A DNA stretch of 14,336 nt from positions 1 through 14,336 of IMG/VR virus record IMGVR_UViG_2537561825_000009. The stretch is one strand, 5' to 3'. Made by a program: the position numbers and the translations under genes. Below the pieces are notes generated by a model. That model made no database searches. It was not told the DNA's origin and saw only the letters and a list, made by a program, of their open reading frames with translations. The DNA is from a virus. Its lineage: Duplodnaviria; Heunggongvirae; Uroviricota; Caudoviricetes. Of the stretch, positions 1 through 14,336 are shown in pieces (position 1 is the first letter of the stretch; the number at the start of each line of letters is the position of its first letter).

Positions 1-1
1 G

Positions 2-781
2 ATTCAGGACGCCCTGAAATCCTGTGGCTTACCGGTGGGTGCCGTGCAGGCGATTGATAATCCTGACCGTGCGCTGGTCAGTGAAATGCTGCGTATGGAT
101 AAATACATCGACATGCTGATCCCGCGTGGTGGCGCTGGTTTGCATAAACTGTGCCGCGAACAGTCGACGATCCCGGTGATCACAGGTGGTATAGGCGTAT
201 GCCATATTTATGTTGATGAAAGTGTAGAGATTGCTGAAGCATTAAAAGTGATCGTCAACGCGAAAACTCAGCGTCCGAGCACATGTAATACGGTAGAAAC
301 GTTGCTGGTGAATAAAAACATCGCCGATAGCTTCCTGCCCGCATTAAGCAAACAAATGGAGGAAAGCGGCGTGGCATTACACGCAGATGCAGCTGCGCTG
401 GCGCAGTTGCAGACAGGCCCCGCGAAGGTGGTGGCTGTTAAAGCGGAAGAGTATGACGATGAGTTTCTGTCATTAGATTTGAACGTCAAAATCGTCAGTG
501 ATCTTGACGATGCCATCGCCCATATTCGTGAACACGGCACACAACACTCCGATGCGATCCTGACCCGCGATATGCGCAACGCCCAGCGTTTTGTTAACGA
601 AGTGGATTCGTCCGCTGTTTACGTTAACGCCTCTACGCGTTTTACCGACGGCGGCCAGTTTGGACTGGGTGCGGAAGTGGCGGTAAGCACACAAAAACTC
701 CACGCGCGTGGCCCAATGGGGCTGGAAGCACTGACCACTTACAAGTGGATCGGTATTGGTGATTACACCATTCGTGCGTAA
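2..781 (+). CDS. proA: gamma-glutamyl phosphate reductase, C-terminal part (5' end lies upstream of the window)
   Basis: The frame is open from the window start to a TAA at 779-781. The translation ends ...[23 protein letters not shown], which I recognise as the enterobacterial ProA C-terminus. thrW follows immediately, as in the E. coli proA-thrW arrangement. Confidence 0.9.
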
Positions 782-895
782 ATAAAACCGGGTGATGCAA
801 AAGTAGCCATTTGATTCACAAGGCCATTGACGCATCGCCCGGTTAGTTTTAACCTTGTCCACCGTGATTCACGTTCGTGAACATGTCCTTTCAGG

Positions 896-971
896 GCCGA
901 TATAGCTCAGTTGGTAGAGCAGCGCATTCGTAATGCGAAGGTCGTAGGTTCGACTCCTATTATCGGCACCA
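896..971 (+). tRNA. thrW: tRNA-Thr (anticodon CGU)
   Basis: 76-nt sequence GCCGATATAGCTCAGTTGGTAGAGCAGCGCATTCGTAATGCGAAGGTCGTAGGTTCGACTCCTATTATCGGCACCA. The acceptor stem GCCGATA/TATCGGC pairs, the D-arm is GCTC...GAGC, the T-arm is GGTTCGACTCC, the anticodon loop carries CGT, and the 3' end is CCA. Confidence 0.93.
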
Positions 972-985
972 TTAAAATCAATAAG
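926..985. other. putative prophage attachment site (attL) overlapping the 3' half of thrW; exact core not determinable from one junction
   Basis: The integrase stop codon (986-988, minus strand) lies 14 bp past the tRNA CCA end. P22-type integrases recombine within the 3' end of thrW (established knowledge). The attR copy is not in the window, so the core length is inferred. Confidence 0.3.
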
Positions 986-2149
986 TTACACATCATTAGT
1001 ACCTTCCTTATTTTTTGACTGGGACAAATTTGGGACCGGTGGGTTCAGGATCGAGTCTATTTGCCGTGCGTGTTCGGTAAGGTGATTAGGTGCAAGGTGA
1101 GCATATCGACGAACCATTTCGATAGACTCCCAGCCTCCCATTTCCTGTAACACTGACAACGGGACTCCGGCTTGAACCAGCCAACTTGCCCAGGTGTGTC
1201 TCAAGTCGTGAAATCTGAAATCATCAATACCAGCCCGTCTCAGCGCCGCTTTCCAGGCTGTGTTTGCGTCATACCGCATCTTCCTTACTGTTGGCGCTTT
1301 CGTTCCGTCTGGTTTGGTACAGCTTTCCTTGTACACAAATACCCAACGGTGATGATTCCCGATTTGTTTTTTCAATACGCGACATGCAGTATCATTCAGC
1401 GCAACGCCAATTGCGCGGTTTGATTTACTCTCTTCCGGGTTTATCCATGCCACCCGGCGCTGCATATCTATTTGTTGCCATTCAAGGTTGATGATGTTCG
1501 AGCGTCTTAAGCCTGTTGCCAGTGCAAATTCAACAACAGACTTTAATGGCTCCGGACATTCATCAATCAGCCTTTGTGCTTCATGGGGCTTCAGCCAGCG
1601 GATCCGTTTATTCTTTGGTTGAGGCACTTTAATAATTGGTGCCTTATCCAGCATTTTCCATTCACGCTCTGCGGCTCTTAGTAGGGCCTTTATAAATGAA
1701 AGATGCGTAGCCTTCGTTGCAACGGACGCTGGTTTTGGCGTGTATTCTGGAACAGGTTTCCCTTTTTTTCTGCATGCTTCTGCCCTGAGTTTCCAGTTTT
1801 CCTCATGACGCCGGTTCGTCATTTTCTGCATTGCTGAATAAATTTTTGATTCAGTAATGTCTCTTAGTTGCATTCCTGCGAAATGTTGAAGCCAGAATCC
1901 GATCCGGCTTTTGTCATCGTCCAGTGATTTTTTATGTGCTTTCTCTTCAAGCCACCTGACACACGCTTCCTCGAACGTTATATCAGGTATTTCACCAAGT
2001 TTGCTGACCCGCCATGCTTCAGCCTTTAGCTTGTCATGGAGTTCTGTCGCCTGCCTTTTGTCCTTTGTTCCAAGAGACTGTTTAAATCTTTTACCGTTCG
2101 GCAATGTGAAACTGGCGTACCATATTTCACCTCTGCGGAAGAGTGACAT
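986..2149 (-). CDS. int: tyrosine site-specific integrase, P22 Int-like (387 aa)
   Basis: N-terminus [41 protein letters not shown] and C-terminal catalytic region ...[42 protein letters not shown] (R..HxxR..Y signature) match the P22 integrase as I recall it. An SD (AGAGGAAAG) precedes the ATG, and the gene sits next to the tRNA. Confidence 0.95.
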
Positions 2150-2376
2150 TTTCTTTCCTCTGTTATGCCATCACCCGCGCTCACCTGGACAGTATGCAGC
2201 GGAGACTGAAGAGCCGCAATGCAGGCTTGTCGTGTTGTGAGGTAAGGAGATTTATTCTTAGTGGGATCTTTGCGTGTTGCCTGAAGACGCCCTGTGCGTA
2301 TCCAGTTAATGGCAGTCGGTCTGGATATCTTGAGAAAATGACAGGCCTCATCGAGTGTGAGGCTGTATGGCTCCAT
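2026..2376 (-). CDS. xis: excisionase, P22 Xis-like (116 aa), 3' end overlapping int
   Basis: Internal Met of ORF 2026..2460 begins [36 protein letters not shown], a helix-turn-helix excisionase-like N-terminus. The resulting length of 116 aa matches P22 Xis. Its ATG overlaps the TAA of the upstream ORF (TAATG at 2374-2378 on the minus strand). Confidence 0.75.
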
Positions 2377-2681
2377 TATTTCACCTCTTGCTGTGACATT
2401 GTTGAAAAATGGATACCAGCTCGTTGCTGCCAGACGATCCAACCGAGAGTCATATCCCATGCCATGTATTCGTTATTGCCGTTTTTTGCTCTCCGACGAT
2501 CTACTAAGTCACCGAAACGCTTTTCCATGAATAATTCATAAGCTTCGCGTTCATCTGGTTCTACTTCCAGAGATAGGAGTGCGATTTCATAAGCACGGCG
2601 CTCAATATCGTCTCGCACGTCAAGGCTGCTGATACGCTCTTTAATTTCTTTAATCAGTTCTTTGTCGGTAAAAGTGGTCAT
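2376..2681 (-). CDS. yfdT: hypothetical prophage early protein (101 aa), YfdT-like by size and position
   Basis: Acidic, helical-looking ORF (MTTFTDKELIKEIKERISSLDVRDDIERRAYEIALL...) translationally coupled to both neighbours. Its length and place in the operon fit the yfdPQRST pattern as I recall it. No motif recognised. Confidence 0.5.
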   Translation of the reverse strand: MTTFTDKELIKEIKERISSLDVRDDIERRAYEIALLSLEVEPDEREAYELFMEKRFGDLVDRRRAKNGNNEYMAWDMTLGWIVWQQRAGIHFSTMSQQEVK

Positions 2682-3043
2682 TATGCTCCAGCCTCCGGTG
2701 CTTTTGGCATTACTGCCCAGTGAGTGATATTGACGTTTTCAAGGTCCCCGACCTGAAATGTCCACTGCCATTCTCCGGTTTCTTTTTGTCCCCAGGTGTA
2801 CCAGAGAGAACGCCAGCCAATTAGCCAGCCTTCTCCGTTAGCATCGAATAACAAAACACTTTCATTTGCTGGTGGCAGTTCAGTTGACACTGGTATTACT
2901 TTGTTTTCCTGTGCTGCACATTTAGCTTCAAGCGCATCGAATTTACGCACCAGGTATTCAGCATCTGTTTCATTTACTTTCAGATCTCGCGGTACACATC
3001 TCCCACGAAGAAACCCTTCCATTTCGAAAACATTCATGCGCAT
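2681..3043 (-). CDS. yfdS: DUF551-like prophage protein (120 aa), YfdS-like
   Basis: Trp-rich C-terminal half (...GWLIGWRSLWYTWGQKETGEWQWTF...NITHWAVMPKAPEAG) resembles the DUF551 signature (...THWMPLPEPP). The ORF overlaps its upstream and downstream neighbours. Confidence 0.6.
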   Translation of the reverse strand: MRMNVFEMEGFLRGRCVPRDLKVNETDAEYLVRKFDALEAKCAAQENKVIPVSTELPPANESVLLFDANGEGWLIGWRSLWYTWGQKETGEWQWTFQVGDLENVNITHWAVMPKAPEAGA

Positions 3044-3570
3044 TTGCGTAACTCCGATAACTCGTTAAAGCGTTCCATAAACATCCCGTAGGCATGGCCC
3101 GGTGCCAGTGGAATCACGTTGAACATCTCTGTTGCCGGGATACCTTCCAGTACAGGCCAGAAAGAGCCATCATCAAGCCCGAGATCGCGGCGTTCGGTTG
3201 CCAGCATGATGAGATCGGCATATTTCACGGGCGTACTCATAACTGGGGGTAACCCGTATTTCTCACGGATTACGGCGTCTATTTTTTCTTCCATTTGTTT
3301 ATAGTCAGGAAGAAGGCGTTTCAGTGGTGCGGGAATGTCCTGGCAATACGCTTCTGTTGCATCATGCATTAACGCTTCAAAAGCAAATTCCTGCGGCACC
3401 AGCTGGCTGCAAAGAACCGCATGTTGGGCGACGCTGTAGAAGTGCGAAAGATGACCGGCAAAGCGACAGATATTTGAAAGGGAAACCGCGATATCGTTAA
3501 TATCGATGTCGTCTTTATTTATCCTGTCATAATAAAAATGCTTCCCGGAAAAAGTTTTAATAAATGACAT
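3034..3570 (-). CDS. yfdR: HD-domain phosphohydrolase / 5'-deoxynucleotidase-like (178 aa), YfdR-like
   Basis: His...HD metal-binding signature (FAGHLSHFYSVAQHAVL ... ALMHDATEAY). Start chosen at the ATG at 3570, which is preceded by GTGGAGAACAAA (an SD), rather than the GTG at 3597. The 178-aa length equals YfdR. Confidence 0.75.
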   Translation of the reverse strand: MSFIKTFSGKHFYYDRINKDDIDINDIAVSLSNICRFAGHLSHFYSVAQHAVLCSQLVPQEFAFEALMHDATEAYCQDIPAPLKRLLPDYKQMEEKIDAVIREKYGLPPVMSTPVKYADLIMLATERRDLGLDDGSFWPVLEGIPATEMFNVIPLAPGHAYGMFMERFNELSELRKCA

Positions 3571-3697
3571 TTTGTTCTCCACGTATATGCGCTGCACCGC
3601 GCTGAATTCTGGTAAAAAGAATCCCTCACCATCCGGCGATTATTGAGTAAATTACGTTTCCATAAATGCCCCCGCAGGGGCATTTGCAGTAATGAAA

Positions 3698-4522
3698 TCA
3701 GGCGGTGAAAGTACCAATAAAGGTTTCTACTTTGCTGTCCTTGAATTTCTCAACAAGCAGCTCACGAAATTCGTTAGCCATTTCTTCCTGCACCGCCTCC
3801 AGCTGAATAATGCGCAGAACCAGTACAGGACGATCGCCAGTGATAATACTGAGGCGTAATTTAAACGGACGTTCTTTCAGACCTTCAAACGGAACGCATT
3901 TAAATTCAAATGCCACTGGCATAATGTCTTTGGTCTTCGCTTCGACAGACTCCATCAGGGAGCGTTTGCCGCTGAAGTCATTATCTTCAAAATCAGCGGT
4001 CTGGTTTGCTTCAATCGTGATTTTACGGACAGCCGCAGCCGCTTTTGTTGCCTGAATAGCGTCACCATTAGCATCAAAGCCCACAAGATAGTCGGCCCAG
4101 TCTTCAATCCATTCTGCTAGTGACTTCTGGGAGTTACGCTCGCCGTTAACAGACAACAGAGCAGAGAACGGTGCTGTCTTTTTCAGTTTGAGTGTGGCGG
4201 TGTTATCTGCGTGACCTGGTTCATCAATAGTACCTAGGTTAAGCACACTGACGGCACGCATATTATCAGCATCGATAAAGCAGCGGGTGCCTTCATCTGC
4301 AAGATCTTTAGAATAACGGGTAAAATCATCGATGCTGGCAGTGGAAAGCGCACCACGGAAACGGAAGCGATTTAAATTAAATTTTTCCAGATCATGAATG
4401 CGGAAATTCTCAGGCAATGCCACAGCATCGGCACCAATCTTACTGATAATTTCATTAACACCCTGAGCAGAAATAAGGGCATGGATTTGATTAATTGCGG
4501 TTGCGTCTAAGTTCTGAGACAT
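3698..4522 (-). CDS. yfdQ: DUF2303-family prophage protein (274 aa), YfdQ-like
   Basis: Clean 274-aa ORF with an SD (GTGAGGA) 8 nt before the ATG. Size and neighbourhood (between the yfdP-like and HD genes) match YfdQ. Family assignment is from memory, not alignment. Confidence 0.7.
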
Positions 4523-4587
4523 AATAAGTCCTCACTATATAAAGATATTCAGTGATGAGATAAATAATCAGTTAATTAAAAACGATA

Positions 4588-4950
4588 TTAACGACCTGCT
4601 GCGCGGAGTTTTCCGTCAGGTTCACCGGCAAGAGTCAGCAACTGTCCCTGGTCTTCCTGCAGAATAGTCAGGCGACCACCGCGATTGACATACATCGGCG
4701 TTTCGGTGGTGTCTTCTTCGGAAATTTTCCCGCGGTTAGTCGGGCGAACATATGAGAGTTTGTGTTTGATTTTCACTCGGTTCTCATCAAACGGTTCGAT
4801 TTCTAGGTTGAGCGAGACCTTACCTTTGGTTTTCGTGTTCATCACACCGGAAGCGACTTCACTGAGAACTGCGCCGATTTTGGTTTCAAATACGCCGCCG
4901 TCCAGCTCCCCGATAAATGCCTGCACATCAGTACTGCGTTCGCTAGCCAT
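4588..4950 (-). CDS. yfdP: hypothetical prophage early protein (120 aa), YfdP-like; first gene of the leftward operon
   Basis: ATG at 4950 is preceded by AGGAGCAGCAAA (SD AGGAG, roughly 7 nt spacer). The longer 226-aa upstream extension in the ORF track runs through the GC-rich hairpin region and lacks a better start. Confidence 0.6.
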   Translation of the reverse strand: MASERSTDVQAFIGELDGGVFETKIGAVLSEVASGVMNTKTKGKVSLNLEIEPFDENRVKIKHKLSYVRPTNRGKISEEDTTETPMYVNRGGRLTILQEDQGQLLTLAGEPDGKLRAAGR

Positions 4951-4998
4951 TTTGCTGCTCCTCATCATATCGACCCTGCAAGGTCGGTTAGTTTCTCC

Positions 4999-5087
4999 AC
5001 AAAACAGAGAAGAACACCTGCGGTGACTGCCGCCCGGATGGATTGGGTTATGAGCCCGTCGTCCGGTGATGCTCTTCTCTGTTTTGT
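4999..5087. repeat. long perfect inverted repeat (15-bp arms ACAAAACAGAGAAGA / TCTTCTCTGTTTTGT, 59-nt spacer) in the GC-rich leader of the leftward operon
   Basis: Arms at 4999-5013 and 5073-5087 are exact reverse complements. The spacer contains further short stems (GCGG..CCGC, CCGG..CCGG). Confidence 0.8.
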
Positions 5088-5096
5088 AAAAAGGAC

Positions 5097-5131
5097 GGTA
5101 CCAGCCGGAAGCAAGGGTACAAGCTGGTACC
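5097..5131. promoter_or_regulatory. operator-like inverted repeat GGTACCAGC-N17-GCTGGTACC with an internal GGTACAAG half-site (candidate OL)
   Basis: Shares the GGTACAAG / CTTGTACC half-site with the palindrome in the cI-cro intergenic region. It lies upstream of the first leftward early gene. Confidence 0.35.
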
Positions 5132-5419
5132 GCCAAGACTACACACAGCATAAAGTTGTGGTGCCGGGTGCCTCCCGGTGCCTGGCGAAGGTTGCACACC
5201 AGGCGGGTGGGTATCCACAGAAGGTCGACTGTCAGCCTCAACCTTAACCCGCGTGCGCTGAGCCGCATTCACCACAACGCTAAGGATTCTCTCTGGTTGA
5301 AAATACTTAGCTGTTATGTGCCTGCTTTTAGCCACATCAGGCGAGGTGGACCTAGTTATTCCCCAACAACAAGGATTCGGTTAATCTGGATATCCCCAAC
5401 AACAATAAGAGTATTCAAT

Positions 5420-5935
5420 GTGATCGCTGAATTAACGGCAGCAATGACGGCTATTCGTGAAATCGCCCAGATTGCAAAACTAATGAACGAGGCAAAAACT
5501 CAAGCTGAAGTAAATGCGGCTATTGGTGAGCTGAACTCAAAGCTTGCGTCTATTCAGCGCGAATGCGTGTCTCTCGTTGAACTGCTGGGCTCTTATCAAG
5601 AAATAAATGCTTCTCTCAAAGCTAAAATTGCAGAATTCGAAAACTTTGAGGCTCAGACGGAAGGCTATATCCTTAACCAACTTGAGTCGGGTACTTTTGT
5701 ATACTCGAAGGAGGTAATCGTGAACGGTGACAGCATAACCATGCATCTTTGCCCAAAATGTTTTGGACAAAAGATAGTATCGATACTTCAACCATTCCCG
5801 GTTAGCGAAGATGAGCTTTTTCATAAAAGCAGGTGCCTCCACTGTGAAAATAAGTTTCTGATGAATAAAAATCCGGATTACGTATCGCCTCCATCCATTG
5901 AGGAGTTGGCCAGAAAACTTAACGGCAATCTGTAG
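5420..5935 (+). CDS. hypothetical coiled-coil / C4 zinc-ribbon protein (about 171 aa from the GTG at 5420, or 163 aa from the ATG at 5444); immunity-region moron
   Basis: N-terminal heptad-like segment (AIREIAQIAKLMNEAKTQAEVNAAIGELNSKLASIQRE...) and C-terminal CPKCFGQ...CLHCENKF (CxxC-N29-CxxC). It is on the strand opposite to both flanking operons and has its own intrinsic terminator. The start codon is uncertain because the SD is weak. Confidence 0.6.
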   Translation: MIAELTAAMTAIREIAQIAKLMNEAKTQAEVNAAIGELNSKLASIQRECVSLVELLGSYQEINASLKAKIAEFENFEAQTEGYILNQLESGTFVYSKEVIVNGDSITMHLCPKCFGQKIVSILQPFPVSEDELFHKSRCLHCENKFLMNKNPDYVSPPSIEELARKLNGNL

Positions 5936-5974
5936 ATTGCTACTGTTGTGGATATCCAGATTGTTAAAGAGCGA

Positions 5975-5998
5975 AGCGTCCTATAGGGCGCTTTTTTG
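5975..5998 (+). terminator. rho-independent terminator of the moron gene
   Basis: Stem AGCGTCC / GGGCGCT (7 bp, one G-U pair) with a TATA loop, followed by TTTTTT, 40 bp after the stop codon. The reverse strand has no T-tract. Confidence 0.7.
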
Positions 5999-6077
5999 TT
6001 GCTAACGAATCATCCTGGACTTCATATGCTCCAGGGGGCTACTTCGTGGGCGTCCTGCCTGTTTGTTGTTTCTCTTG

Positions 6078-6114
6078 GGTACATTATGTATCTCAAAGGT
6101 ACATTGTCAAGTAT
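6078..6114. promoter_or_regulatory. pair of operator-like GGTACAT sites (GGTACATTATGTATC and GGTACATTGTCAAGTAT) just beyond the cI terminator
   Basis: Same GGTACAT core as the site overlapping the cro SD and start codon (6903-6916). Confidence 0.3.
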
Positions 6115-6136
6115 AAAAAAACCTGCCGAAGCAGGT
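6114..6136 (-). terminator. rho-independent terminator of the cI transcript
   Basis: Hairpin ACCTGC-cgaa-GCAGGT (6121-6136) followed on the minus strand by a 7-nt U-tract (A-run 6114-6120 on plus), 14 bp after the cI stop. Confidence 0.65.
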
Positions 6137-6149
6137 TCATAAACATTGA

Positions 6150-6824
6150 TTAGGCTTTGATTTTGTATCTTCTTGGTTTTCCTGAGAAAATCACAGTTCC
6201 AATTATAGAGCAATTACCGTTGATCTTAATGTAAGGCTCAGGCCAGTTTGGGTTTAACGCTTTGAGATAACGCTGTGTCCCATCTTCTATCAACCTTTTG
6301 AAGGTGGTTTCACCTGTATCGTGCATCAATGCAATAACGTCGTCACCGTGGCAGGCAGGTACTTCAGGATCGACAAAAATCATGTCTCCCGGGCGGTACT
6401 CATCAATCATTGAATCACCTATCACCCGCAAGATATAAGTCATTTCCCCACAGGGTACAGGGCAGGGATACGTTTCTGCTGTGCTCAAATCAACCTCAGA
6501 ATATCCAACTTCTTTCCATGCTCCGGCCTGTACCCATGATATGACAGGGACTAATGTGATTTGTTTATTAGTGATTGAAACATCAGGTTTTTTTGTGATG
6601 TTCGTTGTCTGGTGTTCTTGATCGAGCCATCCGACAGGCAGGTCGAAACATTTTTCGATGTGTCGTGCCATGCTGTCACCGATATTTTTAGTAGCACCAT
6701 CTCCCATAAACCTGCTGGTCTGGGTTGGCTCGCGATCAATCATAGTGGCAAAGGAAGAATTCCCGCCAACACCATCTCTCAGTTTTCTGGCGTTAGACCG
6801 CCGGATGTCATGGATTGTTTTCAT
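6150..6824 (-). CDS. CI-type prophage repressor with C-terminal LexA-like S24 peptidase domain (224 aa)
   Basis: N-terminal HTH-like region, long linker, then an S24 autopeptidase core with GDSM (Ser nucleophile) and a downstream TFKRL lysine. Divergent from the cro-like gene across an operator-bearing intergenic region. Confidence 0.88.
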   Translation of the reverse strand: MKTIHDIRRSNARKLRDGVGGNSSFATMIDREPTQTSRFMGDGATKNIGDSMARHIEKCFDLPVGWLDQEHQTTNITKKPDVSITNKQITLVPVISWVQAGAWKEVGYSEVDLSTAETYPCPVPCGEMTYILRVIGDSMIDEYRPGDMIFVDPEVPACHGDDVIALMHDTGETTFKRLIEDGTQRYLKALNPNWPEPYIKINGNCSIIGTVIFSGKPRRYKIKA

Positions 6825-6839
6825 AACGAAATTAAAACC

Positions 6840-6860
6840 CTTGTACCGTTAAGGTACAAG
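6840..6860. promoter_or_regulatory. operator palindrome CTTGTACC-GTTAA-GGTACAAG in the cI/cro divergent promoter region (OR)
   Basis: Perfect 8-bp inverted arms located 16 bp upstream of the cI ATG and immediately upstream of the candidate pR -35 element. Confidence 0.6.
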
Positions 6861-6864
6861 TATC

Positions 6865-6892
6865 TTGAAGGTTCATTTCAATCATGTAATAT
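6865..6892 (+). promoter_or_regulatory. candidate pR promoter for the cro-like gene (-35 TTGAAG, 16-bp spacer, -10 TAATAT)
   Basis: Hexamers and spacing read from the sequence. The predicted transcript start is about 20 nt before the cro ATG and includes the GGAGG SD. Confidence 0.4.
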
Positions 6893-6914
6893 GTACGCCG
6901 GAGGTACATATTGT

Positions 6915-7115
6915 ATGAAAGCGTATTGGGACTCTTTAACCAAAGAACAGCAGGGCGAGTTGGCCGGAAAAGTTGGCTCAACACCTGGCTACTTACGGCT
7001 GGGTTTCAATGGCTATAAAAAAGCCAGTTTTGTGCTGGCTAAAAAACTTGAGCAATGCACGTCAGGTGCAATTACGAAATCTGACTTAAGACCGGATATC
7101 TATCCGAAAGATTAG
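6915..7115 (+). CDS. Cro-like HTH regulator, YdaS family (66 aa)
   Basis: ATG at 6915 is preceded by GGAGG with a 10-nt spacer. The protein ...LAKKLEQCTSGAITKSDLRPDIYPKD shares the C-terminal LRPDI motif I recall from YdaS-type Cro proteins. The 167-aa track ORF overlapping cI is a spurious extension. Confidence 0.8.
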   Translation: MKAYWDSLTKEQQGELAGKVGSTPGYLRLGFNGYKKASFVLAKKLEQCTSGAITKSDLRPDIYPKD

Positions 7116-7146
7116 CAGAACACTTTCAATTTTTAACCACAGAACG

Positions 7147-7716
7147 ATGAGGCTAATCGTGGGTAAGCATCACTGGAAAGTAGAAAAACAGCCTGAGTGG
7201 TACGTGAAAGCTGTCAGAAAAACTATCGCGGCGTTGCCGGGTGGTTACGCTGAAGCGGCTGACTGGCTCGATGTAACAGAAAACGCTTTATTCAACCGCC
7301 TTCGTGCAGATGGCGATCAGATTTTCCCGCTGGGATGGGCAATGGTTTTACAGCGTGCTGGTGGCACTCACTTCATTGCTGATGCTGTGGCGCAGTCTGC
7401 AAATGGCGTCTTTGTGTCTCTTCCTGACGTCGAAGATGTGGACAACGCCGATATTAACCAGCGTCTGCTGGAAGTCATTGAACAGATCGGCAGTTATTCA
7501 AAACAGATTCGTTCAGCAATCGAAGACGGTGTAGTGGAACCGCATGAGAAGACAGCAATTAACGACGAGCTGTATCTCTCAATTTCGAAGCTGCAGGAGC
7601 ATGCAGCACTTGTCTACAAAATTTTTTGCATTTCAGAAAGTAATGACGCCCGCGAGTGTGCAGCTCCGGGCGTCGTGGCGTCGATTGCTTCTGGTTGTGG
7701 AGAAACTAACGCATGA
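7147..7716 (+). CDS. CII-like / YdaT-like phage regulatory protein (189 aa; possible GTG start at 7159)
   Basis: Sits in the cII position directly after cro. Size and composition are consistent with the phage CII (CP76)/YdaT family. The GTG at 7159 has a closer GAGG SD than the ATG at 7147. Confidence 0.55.
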
Positions 7717-8051
7717 ACAGTTTAACAACACACTACCGTCGCTCGCAACTGATTGCGCTTCCTGTACCGGGTGGAAAAGCGAAGGTGGAATATTGCTATG
7801 CAGTGAATGTACCAGGTGACAGGGAAATTGTAACCCACAGCTTTGCAGAGTGGGCTGTGGGTGATTTCAACCGGCAGAAGGAGACAGTCCTTTGCGACAA
7901 GTTAACCGCTGGTTCAAAGATCACTACGGAGTGCCCGTCAGAGTCATTCGTTGGGAGCCGGAAACACAACGGGTTATCTACCTCCGCGAAGGTTATGAGC
8001 ATGAATGCTTCAGTCCGCTCGAACAGTTTCGTCGTAAATTCAGGGAAATAG
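7713..8051 (+). CDS. hypothetical protein (112 aa); possibly only the N-terminal half is genuine
   Basis: ATG overlaps the stop of the upstream gene (ATGA). The C-terminal third is Ser-rich and low-complexity, while another frame over the same DNA encodes a more protein-like sequence (see next feature). Confidence 0.4.
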
Positions 8052-8071
8052 AGGTCGGTCATGAGCACTAA
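7892..8071 (+). CDS. candidate small protein (59 aa, TTG start) translationally coupled to the replication gene
   Basis: Strong SD GAAGGAGA 8 nt before the TTG. Translation [59 protein letters not shown] looks like a folded domain. Its stop overlaps the start of the O-like gene by 11 nt. It falls just below the 60-aa ORF-track threshold. Confidence 0.35.
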
Positions 8072-9002
8072 ATTAACCGGCTATGTATGGGATGGTTGCG
8101 CTGCATCAGGCATGAAGTTATCCAGCGTGGCAATTATGGCCCGCCTGGCTGATTTCAGTAATGACGAAGGTGTGTGCTGGCCATCAATTGAAACCATTGC
8201 CCGTCAGATTGGCGCGGGGATGAGTACCGTCAGAACGGCTATCGCACGGCTGGAAGCAGAAGGCTGGTTAACGCGTAAGGCGCGTCGCCAGGGTAACCGC
8301 AATGCGTCGAATGTTTATCAGCTTAACGTTGCGAAGCTTCAGGCAGCGGCATTTTCTCAACTGTCAGATTCTGACCCGTCAAAATCTGACGCATCAAAAT
8401 CTGACCCGTCAAAATTTGATGCGTCGAAATCTGGCAAAAAAGCGGGTTTTCACCCGTCAGAATCTGGCGGGGATCCGTCAGTAAAATCAAAACATGATCC
8501 GTCAGATAAAAAACCTTCTCGTCCGGACGCTTCGCAACCGGACACGCAGACGGCTGAACAGGATTTTTTAACTCGCCATCCTGATGCGGTTGTATTCAGC
8601 CCTAAAAAGCGCCAGTGGGGGACGCAGGATGATTTGACCTGCGCACAGTGGCTCTGGAAAAAAATCATCGCCCTGTACGAGCAGGCTGCCGAATGTGACG
8701 GCGAGGGGGTTCGTCCCAAAGAACCGAACTGGACAGCCTGGGCAAACGAAATTCGCCTGATGTGTGTGCAGGATGGTCGTACTCACAAACAAATCTGCGA
8801 GATGTACAGCCGCGTCAGCCGCGATCCGTTCTGGTGCCGTAACGTGCTCAGCCCGTCGAAGCTGCGGGAAAAATGGGATGAGCTTTCCCTGCGCTTATCG
8901 CCGTCCGTAAGCACGTACACCGAAAAACGCGAAGACCCGTACTTCAAATCCAGTTACGACAACGTGGACTACAGCCAGATCCCGGCAGGATTCAGGGGGT
9001 GA
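8061..9002 (+). CDS. phage replication initiator, O-like (N-terminal winged-helix domain, repeat linker, C-terminal DnaT-like domain; 313 aa)
   Basis: N-terminus ...VAIMARLADFSNDEGVCWPSIETIARQIGAGMSTVRTAIARLEAEGWLTRK is a typical replication-initiator HTH. The central part is encoded by DNA iterons. The C-terminal Trp-rich region (...CAQWLWKKIIALYEQ...PNWTAWANEIRLM...) is typical of the DnaT-like domain. Confidence 0.8.
   Translation: MSTKLTGYVWDGCAASGMKLSSVAIMARLADFSNDEGVCWPSIETIARQIGAGMSTVRTAIARLEAEGWLTRKARRQGNRNASNVYQLNVAKLQAAAFSQLSDSDPSKSDASKSDPSKFDASKSGKKAGFHPSESGGDPSVKSKHDPSDKKPSRPDASQPDTQTAEQDFLTRHPDAVVFSPKKRQWGTQDDLTCAQWLWKKIIALYEQAAECDGEGVRPKEPNWTAWANEIRLMCVQDGRTHKQICEMYSRVSRDPFWCRNVLSPSKLREKWDELSLRLSPSVSTYTEKREDPYFKSSYDNVDYSQIPAGFRG
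8358..8515. repeat. origin-type iteron array inside the O-like gene (TCTGACCCGTCAAAA-like units)
   Basis: Four consecutive 15-bp units at 8370-8384, 8385-8399, 8400-8414 and 8415-8429, plus further degenerate CCGTCA-containing copies to about 8515. They encode the DPSKSDASKSDPSKFDASKS repeat in the protein. Confidence 0.7.
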
Positions 9003-9017
9003 TCATGAGTCTGTTAA

Positions 9018-9536
9018 ATGACGTTCAGAAATTCATTGAAGCCCAAAGATATTGTTGGTGTATGGACCGTATGTCACGGGCATATTGCACCGCCAGATAT
9101 TCCGGCAGGCTTCGTGGCTGTTTTCAACAGTGATGAGGCATCGTGGCATCTCGTTGAAGACCATCGAGGTAAAACGGTTTATGACGTGGCATCAGGGGAC
9201 GCGTTATTTATTTCTGAACTCGGTCCGTTACCGGAAAATGTTACTTGGTTGTCACCGGAAGGGGAATATCAGAAGTGGAACGGCACAGCCTGGGTGAAGG
9301 ATACGGAAGCAGAAAAACTGTTCCGGATCCGGGAGGCGGAAGAAACAAAAAACAGCCTGATGCAGGTAGCCAGTGAGCATATTGCGCCGCTTCAGGATGC
9401 TGCAGATCTGGAAATCGCAACGGAGGAAGAAACCTCGTTGCTTGAAGCCTGGAAGAAGTATCGGGTGTTGCTGAATCGTGTTGATACATCAACTGCACCT
9501 GATATTGAGTGGCCTGCAATCCCTGTTATGGAATAA
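9018..9536 (+). CDS. tail fibre assembly protein (Tfa) homologue, probably a 5'-truncated remnant (172 aa)
   Basis: From [35 protein letters not shown]... to ...[17 protein letters not shown] is the conserved Tfa body as I recall it. The first ~21 residues ([21 protein letters not shown]) are unrelated, there is no good SD, and no tail fibre gene lies upstream. Confidence 0.65.
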
Positions 9537-10089
9537 TCGTTCCTGTTGTAGCCACAGTCACGTCATATACAAGAACTTGCCGGCCTAAGAAGAGTTCGTG
9601 CTGATTTTGAATATAAAATCAGCATTACAACGCCCGAAATACCCAGGCTAAAAAATTTCTTAGGACATTATCAGCTGGCGATACATAGATGGACTGGATA
9701 CTAGACCGATAGAGGCGCTGTATGCGTCATCTTGTCGTGATGCTGGCGAAGTTGTGCGAACGAAGTATTAACTTTTGCAGCCTAGCTGATTCAATTGATG
9801 CAGCCACACTAACGGGGCGCTTTTTTCCATGTAATGGTTGTAGAAGATGTTACTGAGAGGGATTAAATGAAACAGCAAATACGTCATATGTTAGAGCATG
9901 TTGTGGTTGACTGTTGAACACACCTATCACAAATGTGCTTCTTTAGAAAGAGAATTTACATAAGCAAATTGCAACATGTTTTTTTTCTGAGTAAATAGTA
10001 TGATTAACAATGCTGACTACCATTTTCTTACATGGCGAACCTAATTAAGAATTAAACGCGAGTAGATTACCCGCTTTAGAGGAGGATTT

Positions 10090-11031
10090 ATGTCCGGTTA
10101 CTGTTTTTACTCTCAGGATGCATTAGCCTTAGCCCAGGCAGCTGGTGTTGATGTAATAATAAACGAGTATGCTGAGAAGAATAAAAAACAGACATATGTT
10201 CTTTGTCGTCCCCTGTCAAATGAGGATGTAAAGTATGATTATGACCAAGCGATAGCGGTATTTTCGGCTGGTATAAAACCTTTTTTTATGAATTTAGGAG
10301 ATGACGTCGAACTCTTTGAAGAGTATCAAGAGGATTTTCTAGAGGATGTATCATATTTAGCAGAGAAATTTAAGTATCGTAGTAAAATTGGAAGAAAAAA
10401 GACATGGCAAGATTTATTTGAAGTACTTTCTGTTGGTGATGCCGATTTCAGTAAGCTGGAGGTTGAAACTAAAGAAAGTAGAATAATTGATTTGCTAATC
10501 TCGCTTATTGTGGGAAGTATTAACGATACTTCAAGAATTAATCTTGAAGCAAGTAATTTATTAGATACAATAAAATCAAAGATTATTTTATTTGATACTG
10601 ATCAAACAAAATTCGTTTTCCAAAGTGGAATTGGAAAAAAGACTGTAATACAAGGCTTGGCTGGTTCGGGGAAAACAGAACTCCTTTTACATAAATTAAA
10701 AGAGGTTTATTTAAGGAACCCTGATGCTAAAATTGCATTTACTTGTTTTAATAAAATACTTGCATCTACAATGAGAACTAGGATACCAGAGTTTTTTGAT
10801 TTTATGCGAGTGGAAAAGCAAATTGAATGGGGTACGAAACTTTTTTGTTTTAACTCTTGGGGTTTGACTAAAGATCCCTTTTCTGGGATGTATAGATATA
10901 TATGTCATTATTACGAAATTCCATTCGGTGGTTTTGGCAACGGAGATTTCGATGCTCTTTGCAAAAAAGCCATTTTGGATATAAAAAAAGTGGGCGGTCT
11001 GATGAAAAAGCTCTCGATTATGTGTTTATAG
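10090..11031 (+). CDS. UvrD-like SF1 helicase, N-terminal segment: unknown ~185-aa domain plus Walker A and motif Ia; frame ends 42 nt after an A7 tract
   Basis: Strong SD AGAGGAGGA before the ATG. Walker A GLAGSGKT at residues 189-196 and Ia-like FTCFNKILAS. GC content is clearly lower than the flanking prophage. Confidence 0.75.
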   Translation: MSGYCFYSQDALALAQAAGVDVIINEYAEKNKKQTYVLCRPLSNEDVKYDYDQAIAVFSAGIKPFFMNLGDDVELFEEYQEDFLEDVSYLAEKFKYRSKIGRKKTWQDLFEVLSVGDADFSKLEVETKESRIIDLLISLIVGSINDTSRINLEASNLLDTIKSKIILFDTDQTKFVFQSGIGKKTVIQGLAGSGKTELLLHKLKEVYLRNPDAKIAFTCFNKILASTMRTRIPEFFDFMRVEKQIEWGTKLFCFNSWGLTKDPFSGMYRYICHYYEIPFGGFGNGDFDALCKKAILDIKKVGGLMKKLSIMCL

Positions 11032-12077
11032 ATGAAAGCCAAGATTTTCCACAAAGCTTCATTGAACTATGTGAAATGGTTACATCTAAAAAACTATATG
11101 TAGCGGGCGATGTATTTCAAAATATATTTATGCCGATTAATGATAACGTGAATCGAGCAGATATAGTTCTTAAAAAATGTTATCGCACAGATCCAAAGAA
11201 CTTAATGTTTTCTCATGCACTAGGAATGGGACTTTATGAGAAACCGGTGCTTCGGTGGTTGAAAGAGACTGAGTGGGATTCTTGTGGATATAAATATAAT
11301 AAGGTTGGGGATAGAGTACATTTATCTAGGGATCCGTTAAGACGCTTTGAAGATATTCCAAAAAATCATAAAAGTACGGCTATTCATTTACTAAAAGAAG
11401 TGGATAATGGTCCTGATAAAATAGTTGAAATTATTAAGGATATTCAGGCCCGCAATCCTACTTTAGAGCAAGGAGATATAGCAGTCATTTTCCTTGATGC
11501 TAGTGGTTATATTTATGATTATATTCAATCACTAAAATCAAAAGTCAAGTTGCAGCTTGGTTGGGACTCTAATATTTCACATGAGACAAAATCAAAACAA
11601 GATGGGAAGCTTTTTATTTCCAATATAAACAATGCAAAAGGGCTTGAGTTCCCATTTGTTATTTGTTTTGCTATGAAATTAGTAAAGAGAGCAAACTTTC
11701 GAAATGCTCTGTATACTATGATGGCTAGATCTTTTTTAGAAAGCCATTTAGTTTTAAATAATGATAATGAAAATCCGGCAATGCCTACTATTATTGAAGG
11801 TTTAGATTTTCTCAATAAAAATGATTATATGGATGTAAGACTTCCGTCGGATGAGGAAATAAACAATCAAAAGGATTATATTATTTTGGATGAGTCTACC
11901 TCTATTAATCAAATGGTTAGAAAATATTGTGAAGATAAAAAATCCACACCTCGCTTAATAGCAAAAGTTACTCACACTGTAGAAACTATAATAGCAGGTC
12001 TTGATGATGATGATGTCGATGATGACTATATAAATAGATTGATTGAAATAGAATATATAAGGAATAAAAAGTTATGA
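10902..12077 (+). CDS. UvrD-like SF1 helicase, C-terminal segment (motifs II-VI) in the alternate frame; the real join is at the A7 tract 10983-10989
   Basis: Motifs DYVFIDESQDF (II), LYVAGDVFQNIF (III), CYRTD (IV), ISNINNAKGLEFPFVI (V, UvrD_C-like) and ALYTMMARSF (VI), then an acidic tail DDDDVDDD. Adding one A to the A7 run fuses the two segments into a single 662-aa protein. Confidence 0.75.
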   Translation: MSLLRNSIRWFWQRRFRCSLQKSHFGYKKSGRSDEKALDYVFIDESQDFPQSFIELCEMVTSKKLYVAGDVFQNIFMPINDNVNRADIVLKKCYRTDPKNLMFSHALGMGLYEKPVLRWLKETEWDSCGYKYNKVGDRVHLSRDPLRRFEDIPKNHKSTAIHLLKEVDNGPDKIVEIIKDIQARNPTLEQGDIAVIFLDASGYIYDYIQSLKSKVKLQLGWDSNISHETKSKQDGKLFISNINNAKGLEFPFVICFAMKLVKRANFRNALYTMMARSFLESHLVLNNDNENPAMPTIIEGLDFLNKNDYMDVRLPSDEEINNQKDYIILDESTSINQMVRKYCEDKKSTPRLIAKVTHTVETIIAGLDDDDVDDDYINRLIEIEYIRNKKL

Positions 12078-12712
12078 GTTTTTATTTCTTTAATAATGTA
12101 CCTACAGTGTACCTTGAAAAGTTCTGCGCTGTAAGAGATGCATTTTCCAATCTGGAAAATCTTCTTATTGCTGCGGAAATTATAAATACATGTCATGACT
12201 GTTGGAATAAAGAAACAAATGATTTCGATTTGCTAATAAGTACTGGTACTCATAAGCGAATTCTGGTGAGGAAACCGGATGGTTTTTTTTCTATGAATTT
12301 ACCATTTCAAGTAATTGAGTATGAAAGCAATATCTGTTTTAACTATGATGCCTATGGGCTTCCTGTTAATGCAGAGTTTATTTCTCGATGCAGGAATGTA
12401 ATAAATACTTGCAGTAATGGCGCTTTTTCTCAGGAGGCAATTGCTCTTGAATTGTGTGATAACTTTGATCGAGATATTCAAAGTGCTATAAATTATGCTG
12501 ATGCAATTTGTTCATTGTTGTTAGTTGATCATGGGTATTTTAGGTTTGATGATGATCCTAAAAATGCGAAGGATAAAGTGCATCCAAGATATCACTTTGA
12601 TTTTTTCTTCAATAATTCTACTAATGTAAAGATAGGCTGTAATACTCGTTTGGATGAATCATTTTTTTTAGAACTATTTGATGTAAATAAAGACCGCCCC
12701 TATCTGGCTTGA
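12074..12712 (+). CDS. hypothetical cysteine-rich protein (212 aa), translationally coupled to the helicase
   Basis: ATG overlaps the helicase stop (ATGA at 12074-12077). Nine Cys residues including a CHDC pair. Same low GC as the helicase. No recognisable family. Confidence 0.7.
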   Translation: MSFYFFNNVPTVYLEKFCAVRDAFSNLENLLIAAEIINTCHDCWNKETNDFDLLISTGTHKRILVRKPDGFFSMNLPFQVIEYESNICFNYDAYGLPVNAEFISRCRNVINTCSNGAFSQEAIALELCDNFDRDIQSAINYADAICSLLLVDHGYFRFDDDPKNAKDKVHPRYHFDFFFNNSTNVKIGCNTRLDESFFLELFDVNKDRPYLA

Positions 12713-12714
12713 AT

Positions 12715-12740
12715 TATAAGCGCCCATCAGGGCGCTTATA
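12715..12740. other. very stable hairpin (11-bp perfect stem TATAAGCGCCC / GGGCGCTTATA, 4-nt loop) 3 bp after the 212-aa gene
   Basis: Read directly from the sequence. There is no U-tract on either strand, so it is not a canonical intrinsic terminator. Confidence 0.6.
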
Positions 12741-13162
12741 GGGTGAGATGAGTATTATAAAGAGTCTGTTTTGGGTAGTGTTTTTATAAATATTTACATA
12801 TATCATAACTTTTGCCAATGTAATATTTGAATTCTTCTATTACGTATTTAAGTATCGTTTGGCTTTTTTTCTTTGGCTATCCTGCACTCAATAAGCATAA
12901 AAATCCATTTACATTGTTTTTGCATATGACATGTTTTTAATTGTTCGAATGGATCGTGTTAGTACTATTTTATCTGGTAAAAAGCAGATGTAGATATTAG
13001 GAAGTTTTTTTTGAATGATAATGGAGCAATTAAGATTTTTTATTCTAACCATTCCCTAGAAATACTCTGCCTAAAAAATAGACATAATATGGCAACCATA
13101 ATAGGCCGGTTTTTGGTGGCATGAAAGGATTTTTAATCCTTGTGCCTGACACCTTATCATGA

Positions 13163-14031
13163 TTATGAAAGACCGTAGTATTTATTTAGCGCGGTGGTAG
13201 CGGCTTGAGTTGCTACAGCTATTCCTATACCCAAAATACCATGGGCTGCTTTACTTGCAATATTTGCCAGCCATTTACTAACAGATTGACCGTATTCATC
13301 ACGTCTGTTAGCTATCGGGCCATCTTCACCAATAGCAATTTCTAAATCGTTTACATCAGATTTAGGAAACCCCTGAGCTAAGAGATATTCTTTTAATGAT
13401 TCAATGTTGTTTTTTACGATATGGTTATTCACAGAAAATGAGTTTTCATTTCCGAAGTTTATAACAGTATTGTCTCCAAAAATTGAGTTATGAAACAATG
13501 AAGACGTGTCGATATTTTTAAGTTTTTCTGTCATGTTTTTCTCATCTGATATTTCAGAAACTTGATCAGAAAGTTCAAGTATAAAATCAAGTAGCCGTGA
13601 TCTGACCTGAGTTAAGATGGAAGTGAAGTTATGTAGCGCGATCTCTTTATAACAGCATGTTAACTCATAGCCTCTATCGATACCTTTGCAATATTTAACT
13701 AATGCATAATCTAAAGGAATTGGCTGCTGCAGGGTATGGCTATCACCAGCATTGGTTACTAGGTCTTCGATTTGACTGATTGAAAGTCTAACTTTACTGG
13801 TTGTAGCATCTTCATAGTCATCTTCACTGAGATAGCCAATCGGTAAAGGAAAAGCTCTATATAGGCGAATGCCATTGTTCAGATCTGCAAGAATTCTTGT
13901 GCCAACAATTCTATAATCGGGAAGGGAAACTGAATCAGAATAACCGTTTATCTCATGATTTACCCATGCAGCAAGCTCCTTTTTCCCGATAGAGAAAAGA
14001 AGGATCTTTGTTTTTATGAGAGCATCTGTTG
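13163..14031 (-). pseudogene. 3' fragment (at least 289 codons) of a gene for a protein with a C-terminal glycine-zipper TM helix; 5' end interrupted by the IS66-family element
   Basis: Minus-strand frame is open without any stop from the IS end (14031) to the TAA at 13163. In-frame ATG/GTG/TTG are absent for 165 codons upstream of the Met at 13534. C-terminus is ...WLANIASKAAHGILGIGIAVATQAATTALNKYYGLS. Confidence 0.6.
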
Positions 14032-14336
14032 GTAAGCGGCTCGTCAGAACCGTATTGATATTTACTGAGAGCTCAGATCAACTTTCCAGGGCAACAGATC
14101 GCGTACCCGGTTTGCCGGCCAGTCCTGGATATGTTCAATGACGTAGCGCAGCCACTTTTCTGGCTCCACATTGTTCAGACGGCATGTGCCGATCAGCGAG
14201 TACAACACCGCCGCATGTTCACCACCGCTGTCGGAACCCGCGAACATCCACTTTTTCCGGCCTACGGCCACTCCCCGTAAGGCGTTCTCTGCGATGTTGT
14301 TGTCGATTTCCACCCAGCCATTACTGCAGTACACGT
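14032..14336 (-). mobile_element. IS66-family insertion sequence, terminal ~300 bp (rest beyond window end)
   Basis: Terminus begins GTAAGCGGCTCGTC at 14032, the GTAAGCG end typical of IS66-family inverted repeats, 30 bp outside the transposase stop. Confidence 0.7.
14062..14336 (-). CDS. IS66-family transposase (TnpC), C-terminal part; 5' end beyond window
   Basis: ...VEIDNNIAENALRGVAVGRKKWMFAGSDSGGEHAAVLYSLIGTCRLNNVEPEKWLRYVIEHIQDWPANRVRDLLPWKV matches the conserved IS66 TnpC C-terminal region as I recall it. Confidence 0.85.
   Translation of the reverse strand, partial: VYCSNGWVEIDNNIAENALRGVAVGRKKWMFAGSDSGGEHAAVLYSLIGTCRLNNVEPEKWLRYVIEHIQDWPANRVRDLLPWKVDLSSQ

Follow-up and report, generated by a model that had tools for sequence, protein, structure and literature searches.

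The virus record IMGVR_UViG_2537561825_000009 of IMG/VR (Caudoviricetes) was analysed over its positions 1 to 14,336, a 14,336-nt stretch hereafter called the window, with the attention centered on a single plus-strand gene, named here the rip1-like gene, which stands in opposite orientation to the early genes of a prophage remnant. Its product is, with an estimated probability of about 0.8, a divergent member of Rip1 ("ring interacting pore 1"), a single-protein prophage defence in which sensor and effector are combined in one. The Rip1 family has already been described (2026), and the window gene is a new, 27%-identical member of it, not a new system. Naming it as a Rip1-family gene would give a RefSeq "hypothetical protein" the concrete function of a pore-forming abortive-infection sensor of terminase and portal rings, and the remnant prophage would therefore still protect its host.

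A profile of 53 homologues of the 171-aa protein was searched against the PDB sequences and matched 9oox_L, the Rip1 of phage HK446, with an expectation value (E) of 3.2e-20, its positions 5–152 (148 of 167) aligning with residues 15–160 of 164, while the next-best PDB sequence reached only E 0.07. Pairwise, the window protein and HK446 Rip1 were 27% identical over 148 aa (E 4e-11), and the reciprocal tblastn search from HK446 Rip1 recovered the same phage homologues, D3112 orf25 among them. The AlphaFold model built on the 53-sequence alignment (predicted local distance difference test score 91.5) had helices at residues 2–24 and 28–79 followed by a beta-rich domain with both CxxC knuckles, and its only Foldseek matches in the PDB below E 1e-3 were the Rip1 chains 9oox_L and 9oox_M (probability 1.00; template modelling score 0.56 by query and 0.73 by target). 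Both knuckles and the SILQ motif are common to the two proteins (LCAQC...SILQ...RCHRC in HK446 Rip1), and the cysteines C111-x2-C114 and C139-x2-C142 were invariant across the 53 homologues. The window gene thus has the full-length similarity, the fold, the motifs and the setting, as a single reverse-oriented prophage moron, of the Rip1 family. A preliminary description of the window had recognised no family for this protein and had proposed profile and structure searches: both led to HK446 Rip1, and the family, phrog_1244 in PHROGs (2e-59, function unknown), does exist. The N-terminal coiled coil and CxxC...CxxC ribbon described there held as far as the helices and the four-cysteine ribbon are concerned, but the N-terminal helices correspond to the amphipathic pore-forming part of Rip1 rather than to a generic coiled coil. 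Searches of Pfam, NCBIfam and PADLOC assigned the protein to no family at a significant level, their only matches being coiled-coil noise.

The family has many members: a profile search run exhaustively collected, at E ≤1e-3, 2,766 cluster representatives (50% identity), nearly all of them 145–180 aa long. Homologues in phage genomes at 27–30% identity included hkaP of HK620, HK630 and HK629, genes of temperate phages of E. coli (vB_EcoM-689R2 and others), and those of the Pseudomonas Casadabanvirus group (DMS3-25, D3112 orf25, MP38 ORF25), while several hundred of the complete E. coli genomes, among them O157:H7, had close copies of the window gene. For the name "HkaP", the literature yielded only an engineering paper in which the hkaP flanks served as neutral insertion sites. 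The 171-aa open reading frame (ORF), running from a GTG start at 5420 to a TAG stop at 5933–5935, is a real gene, since its homologues at 27% to 99% identity retain length and motifs; the O157 allele differs from it by 17 synonymous and 12 non-synonymous codons. The RefSeq annotation of E. coli strain 504239 has an ORF of exactly the same extent under the label "hypothetical protein". Of the span 5420–5998 given previously for this gene the start proved correct, while 5998 marks the end of its terminator and the ORF itself ends at 5935.

Conservation along the protein was uneven, with a mean column identity of 0.66–0.76 in the N-terminal helices and core against 0.40 in the inter-knuckle loop (residues 126–138) and 0.30 in the C-terminal tail (151–171), both being hypervariable. 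Such a pattern fits that expected of a target-contacting surface in an arms race. Compared to HK446 Rip1 (gp37, YP_007111990), which is likewise encoded by a single gene in reverse orientation in a prophage operon next to the immunity region and has a similar size (164 aa), the window protein differs in this loop and tail. The trigger of the window protein is probably different, because the divergent loop and tail lie in the half which contacts the terminase ring in Rip1, and the divergent C-terminal surface suggests a trigger spectrum unlike that of HK446 Rip1. This bears on the host range of phages in therapy and on how Rip1 recognises rings.

The Rip1 proteins of phage HK446 and of a Pseudomonas aeruginosa prophage were reported by Patel et al. 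(Nature 651:1060, 2026), whose results are outlined in section 5 of a review (PMC13434031). According to this outline, the protein by itself is non-toxic, while superinfection of cells containing it leads to rounding up; the escape mutations map to the portal in Pseudomonas phages and to the small terminase in E. coli phages (PMC13434031). Cryo-electron microscopy is summarised there as revealing an 11-mer small terminase ring encircled by 12 Rip1 monomers, which contact the ring by their C-terminal half and whose N-terminal part is an amphipathic helix; the complex is a pore, with dye being released from liposomes, and relatives of Rip1 are described as widespread among proteobacterial prophages (PMC13434031). 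The title of PDB entry 9oox is "HK446 Rip1 in complex with phage T6 small terminase".

Carried over to the window allele by homology, this mechanism would operate as follows. The lysogen would make the Rip1-like protein, which would be harmless alone. Once the late genes of a superinfecting phage are being expressed, the zinc-ribbon C-terminal half would attach to the outer side of an oligomeric ring formed by a morphogenesis protein, the small terminase in coliphages or the portal in Pseudomonas phages; about 12 copies would gather round the ring and their N-terminal amphipathic helices would form a membrane pore, so that the cell would be permeabilised ahead of progeny maturation, i.e., would undergo abortive infection. 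The prophage has lost everything beyond gene O, and the gene would therefore survive as a domesticated host defence.

Several points weigh against the Rip1 assignment and its mechanism. With the characterised Rip1 proteins the window protein shares no more than about 27–29% identity, so that its target specificity is extrapolated, as is even the formation of a pore. The N-terminal helices had a moderate hydrophobic moment, with a maximum of 0.52 at residues 7–24, and the monomer model of the N-terminal half is a soluble helical hairpin. Our account of the Rip1 mechanism derives from the review and the PDB title, not from the primary paper. The window gene was missed by PADLOC 2.0 (2023), in which the Rip1 family is not included. 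The consensus scan upstream of the moron found no plus-strand sigma-70 promoter, and the expression in the lysogen is therefore assumed. Finally, intact relatives such as PhiR49_1 would have to escape self-killing upon induction.

The position of the relatives pointed in the direction of defence. In HK446, rip1 (plus strand) lies between the ral-like and cIII genes and N, antisense to pL, and hkaP has the same antisense position in the pL operon of HK620 and HK630. A 93.5%-identical copy of the window cassette (5312–5972) was found in O157:H7 TW14359, in a Rac-like prophage, with a truncated exonuclease gene on one side and ydaF/racR on the other, a position which we take to be, from the gene order of K-12 Rac, the place where Rac carries sieB. 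HK446 rip1, hkaP of HK620 and HK630 and the O157:H7 copy therefore all occupy the sieB-type antisense slot of lambdoid or Rac-like prophages. The reverse-oriented moron arrangement is common to HK446 gp37, hkaP and DMS3-25, the Pseudomonas homologues being placed between the terminase genes, i.e., in the slot of Tab in JBD26. The role of a defence moron of the sieB or rex type, which had been proposed for the window gene from its regulatory layout, gains support both from the Rip1 homology and from this shared slot.

The same position raises the question of whether the gene might encode a classical SieB-type exclusion or abortive-infection protein, whose mode of action would have no relation to that of Rip1. 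In lambda, P22 and Rac, SieB shares with the window gene the slot and the regulatory logic (own promoter, antisense to pL, expression from the prophage, abortive infection), and hkaP of HK620 is even annotated as "putative superinfection exclusion protein", a label given from position alone. However, SieB is a membrane protein, whereas the window protein matched neither Pfam SieB (E up to 0.1) nor any membrane-protein family and had no hydrophobic segment, the mean hydrophobicity in 18-residue windows being ≤0.33; the two are not homologous. The trigger of Rip1, a late morphogenesis protein, is also unlike that of SieB. With the full-length homology and the fold both pointing to Rip1, a SieB-type protein is unlikely here.

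The state of the prophage brings in another explanation, that the gene, a passenger in a dead element, is in decay and has no current function. The element is an approximately 8-kb remnant of an e14-like prophage at thrW, truncated past gene O, and its neighbourhood is degraded, with a ymfH-like pseudogene region, a tail fibre assembly gene that is only partial, and a helicase gene that has lost 1 nt. Yet the ORF is intact and full-length, with all the invariant residues of the family present, the gene is found in hundreds of E. coli genomes, and a near-identical allele (97% protein identity) occupies the same place in the complete 45-kb phage genomes PhiR49_1 and PhiR29_1, whose recorded host is ECOR13. 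Loss of function is thus quite improbable. A regulator with a coiled coil and a zinc ribbon binding nucleic acids or a sigma factor, such as Chlamydia CT398 or Helicobacter HP0958, which would act on gene expression and not on membranes, is very improbable for a protein matching Rip1 in fold and over its full length.

Other proteins were also compared. Tab of Pseudomonas phage JBD26, a constitutive, prophage-encoded protein of 83 residues directed at virion assembly, is reported to block tail assembly via the tape measure protein and to depend on a partner, anti-Tab (PMC10884400). Tab is unrelated to the window protein, beside whose gene no partner gene was evident, and it was ruled out as the identity of the latter as a different, smaller protein, though it shares the slot of the Pseudomonas homologues. 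TerI of Listeria was rejected for the same reason. HkaP of HK620, HK630 and HK629 belongs to the same family as the window protein (28% identity, profile E 8e-33) and has a similar leader with two C-rich direct repeats; the protein is uncharacterised.

The regulatory signals around the Rip1-like moron are those of a gene read against the leftward early operon (Table 1), as the preliminary description had claimed on the basis of the antisense orientation and an own terminator, both of which were recovered. The pL-like promoter, reading from 6110 to 6083, faces the plus-strand gene and has an operator-like palindrome, ATGTAT-N7-GTACAT (6086–6104), between its hexamers; related palindromes, TTGTACC-N5-GGTACAA and ATGTAC-N7-GTACAT, are present in the cI-cro intergenic region (6840–6911), so that the layout looks like a CI-repressed pL. 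The terminator sequence of the moron was kept downstream of every plus-strand cassette in the slot. It is effectively one-directional, because a U6-G15 wobble on the plus strand becomes a C-A mismatch on the minus strand, where a U run is also lacking, and from its sequence it should stop the moron transcript only. The candidate −10 of the moron, GTTAAT, aligns with TATAAT in two other cassettes, with TAAAAT upstream of HK620 hkaP and with TAATAT upstream of the 689R2 homologue. The leaders of the latter two carry ACCCCTACAG twice, at positions analogous to the direct repeats of the window and around a good −10 (TAAAAT and TAATAT, respectively), and the direct leader repeats may represent a shared regulatory motif of these morons. 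The Rfam search returned no family for the leader or for the repeat arms described below. A stretch at 5312–5349, conserved upstream of HK620 hkaP and of the vB_EcoM-689R2 Rip1 homologue, was first suspected to be the moron promoter; a better explanation for it is the beginning of an STnc100-like small RNA on the opposite strand, which also accounts for its conservation across different phages.

In the lysogen, the CI-type repressor would close the leftward promoter, and the moron would be transcribed unopposed up to its own terminator. Upon induction, leftward transcription with a boxA-dependent Nus complex would read antisense through the cassette and would lower Rip1 synthesis via transcriptional interference and antisense RNA. 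Judged from the sequence, silencing of the moron by pL read-through is plausible, and it is consistent with an exact boxA placed just ahead of the antisense cassette.

The slot itself turned out to be occupied by varied cargo. The flanks of the window gene were present in about 790 of 5,426 complete E. coli genomes, with differing inserts between them. A cargo set was composed of fetched genome examples and 113 metagenomic instances having both flanks, the slot being defined as the interval from the leftward early genes to cI/pL in e14-like prophages (5350–6000 in the window). The cargo fell into 29 clusters, with 11 of these being divergent Rip1-like alleles and 10 belonging to a two-transmembrane family (phrog_6315), while the rest included the ECs1072 family (phrog_5286), an LprI-like secreted protein (phrog_7681), phrog_3983, and proteins of 98 and 157 aa. 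The slot therefore appears to be a hot spot for cassettes, whose cargo comes from six or more unrelated families. Neither a known function nor a PADLOC match was found for the five plus-strand families with phrog numbers; the 98- and 157-aa cargos were not searched. The e14 prophage of K-12 has ymfI/ymfJ in the same slot. One locus (L016) was considered as an empty ancestral site and rejected, as it has different leftward genes. The cassettes of the two-transmembrane family ("MTRDD"; L010 1185–1964, L019 and L021) were longer than the others and had short proline-rich frames (e.g. ...VPPKPRPP...) on both sides of the main gene, inside the interval bounded by the repeat arms.

Every plus-strand cassette in the slot was bracketed by an inverted repeat, and every antisense cassette was accompanied by a boxA. 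The boxA of the window is an exact 12/12 match to GCTCTTTAACAA at 5961–5972 on the minus strand, unique in the window, while some cassettes had the lambda-nutL-like variant GCTCTTTAAAAA; the same search picked up the annotated nutL and nutR boxA of HK620 and HK630. The motif was absent from the six slot loci examined that had no antisense cassette, i.e., those with a co-oriented first leftward gene (K-12 e14 and L012–L014) and also L015 and L016. On the leftward transcript, from the promoter to yfdP, the ORF list and RefSeq contained no protein-coding gene other than a frameshifted hypothetical one in RefSeq, with no search specific for N having been made, and boxA was not followed by a boxB of the lambda type, the sequence there being an arm of the long-range repeat and not a local 5-bp hairpin. 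With neither an N gene nor boxB evident, the boxA, if functional, would be of the N-independent, rrn-like kind.

The score of the inverted repeat in the window was reached by none of 300 shuffles, and the arm duplex had an energy of about −26 kcal/mol on either strand. The outer 12–13 nt of the arms (AATCTGGATATCC) were usually constant, while several cassettes had matched changes on both arms (GATGACT, GTAACCCTC, GATATCTTC, CTTG/CTTR and CAACAATG). Among 40 distinct arm pairs 80% of the cells paired, and 40 double-sided cell changes were counted vs 12.7 ± 2.9 in shuffles (0/500), slid controls being lower; this covariation is supportive rather than a proof, because the arm-pair rows are related to one another. 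The arms were ruled out as CI operators, since the same repressor, WP_000848748, occurred with cassettes of differing arms. Bias of G-U vs C-A mismatches (28 minus-strand-compatible, 17 plus-strand-compatible and 37 incompatible) did not settle the strand of the stem. The leftward transcript would pass through a hairpin, boxA, one arm, about 540 nt of untranslated antisense RNA, the other arm and the STnc100-like element, which is thus the next feature past the cassette and lies outside the moron; the stem in this RNA had a predicted probability near 1. In the sense RNA it can form only if transcription starts upstream of 5383, and the start predicted near 5392, inside the arm, would favour a role in the leftward RNA or at the DNA level.

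The rrn leader offers a parallel: it is composed of boxB-boxA-boxC and a long-range RNase III stem around 16S, and boxA also occurs upstream of CRISPR arrays. The leftward order in the window resembles it, with a hairpin, an exact boxA and an arm of a long-range stem, in contrast to which the RNA enclosed here is the antisense of a cargo gene and the arms could equally act in DNA. In the proposed scheme, boxA would recruit Nus factors, making the induced pL polymerase resistant to Rho across about 560 nt of untranslated antisense cargo, and the arms would pair in the leftward transcript, whereby the cargo would be looped out and perhaps cut out by RNase III. That boxA and the covarying arms make up such a device, rrn-like in its antitermination and looping and serving to read through antisense morons, is a tentative proposal from sequence patterns, in accord with the pL read-through of the preliminary description. 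If true, the site would be a plug-and-play insulated dock for defence genes and the other cargos (ECs1072/phrog_5286, phrog_6315, phrog_7681, phrog_3983 and others) would be candidate new antiphage genes. Such a cassette dock is a defined place to seek new single-gene defences, and its combination of boxA and inverted repeats may explain how antisense morons come to be tolerated by lambdoid early operons. The dock, with its hot spot, boxA and covarying arms, is a less expected part of the results than the identity of the gene.

In its e14-like prophage without N, the window gene directly follows cI/pL, while HK446 rip1 is between N and cIII, and the boxA and inverted-repeat package flanking the former is lacking in HK620. 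No comparable inverted repeat was found in the flanks of HK620 hkaP, 689R2 and DMS3, the flanking repeats of HK620 hkaP being direct in contrast to the inverted ones of the window. In HK446, no boxA match was present in 6.4 kb around rip1, the flanks of which were not examined for inverted repeats.

Table 1. Position of the rip1-like gene, its signals and other features in the 14,336-nt window
Feature	Position	Strand	Details
proA 3' end, then thrW (tRNA-Thr)	thrW 896–968		
Prophage integrase	986–2149	−	
Leftward early operon		−	xis-like, yfdT, eaE-like, yfdR (HD hydrolase), yfdQ (DUF2303), yfdP
STnc100-like small RNA element	5085–5308	−	Rfam RF02076, 43.4 bits vs gathering score 47, E 4e-8, full model length
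Direct leader repeats, two copies of TCCCCAACAACAA	5360–5372 and 5393–5405	+	
Candidate −10 of the moron, GTTAAT	5380–5385	+	Putative; start predicted near 5392
Inverted repeat, left arm AATCTGGATATCCCCAACA	5383–5401		
rip1-like gene, 171 aa	5420–5935	+	N-terminal helices (residues 2–79), C-terminal beta-rich four-cysteine zinc-ribbon domain, SILQP motif conserved
Inverted repeat, right arm TGTTGTGGATATCCAGATT	5944–5962		18/19 positions complementary to the left arm
boxA CGCTCTTTAACAA	5961–5973	−	On the leftward transcript, about 100 nt past the pL-like promoter and directly ahead of the antisense cassette
Intrinsic terminator of the moron	5973–6000	+	Stem 5973–5994 (9 pairs, 5 G-C, loop 4), then T run TTTTGTTG
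pL-like leftward early promoter	6083–6110	−	TTGACA-16-CATAAT, 11/12, strong, sigma-70-like
Repressor-gene terminator	6119–6138	−	
cI-type LexA-family (S24 peptidase) repressor, ymfK	6150–6824	−	

The window was 99.97% identical to E. coli strain 504239 (human stool, India). The neighbours of the rip1-like gene were all on the minus strand, with yfdP, yfdQ, yfdR, xis and int to the left and cI/ymfK to the right, the latter followed by cro (ymfT), ymfL and an O-like replication gene. The phage sequence ended after gene O and gave way to a partial tail fibre assembly gene, an STM2767/STM2766 helicase pair and an IS66 end.

Several minor observations concerned the surroundings of the moron. The STnc100-like element overlapped a frameshifted hypothetical-protein pseudogene of RefSeq (ymfH-like). 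In the gap between the helicase pair and IS66, a 123-aa ORF (13163–13534, minus strand) is labelled "hypothetical protein" in RefSeq and had no match in either of the libraries searched for it, PADLOC and NCBIfam. The helicase pair beside the remnant (10090–12712) consisted of a DEAD/DEAH helicase of the STM2767 family and an STM2766-family partner (NCBIfam equivalogs), with weak PADLOC matches to helicase and GajB-like models; the helicase was split in the window into two overlapping ORFs by the 1-nt deletion and was intact in strain 504239. The partial tail fibre assembly gene (9018–9536) contained a strong Rfam IS009 match at 9295–9493 (220.9 bits).

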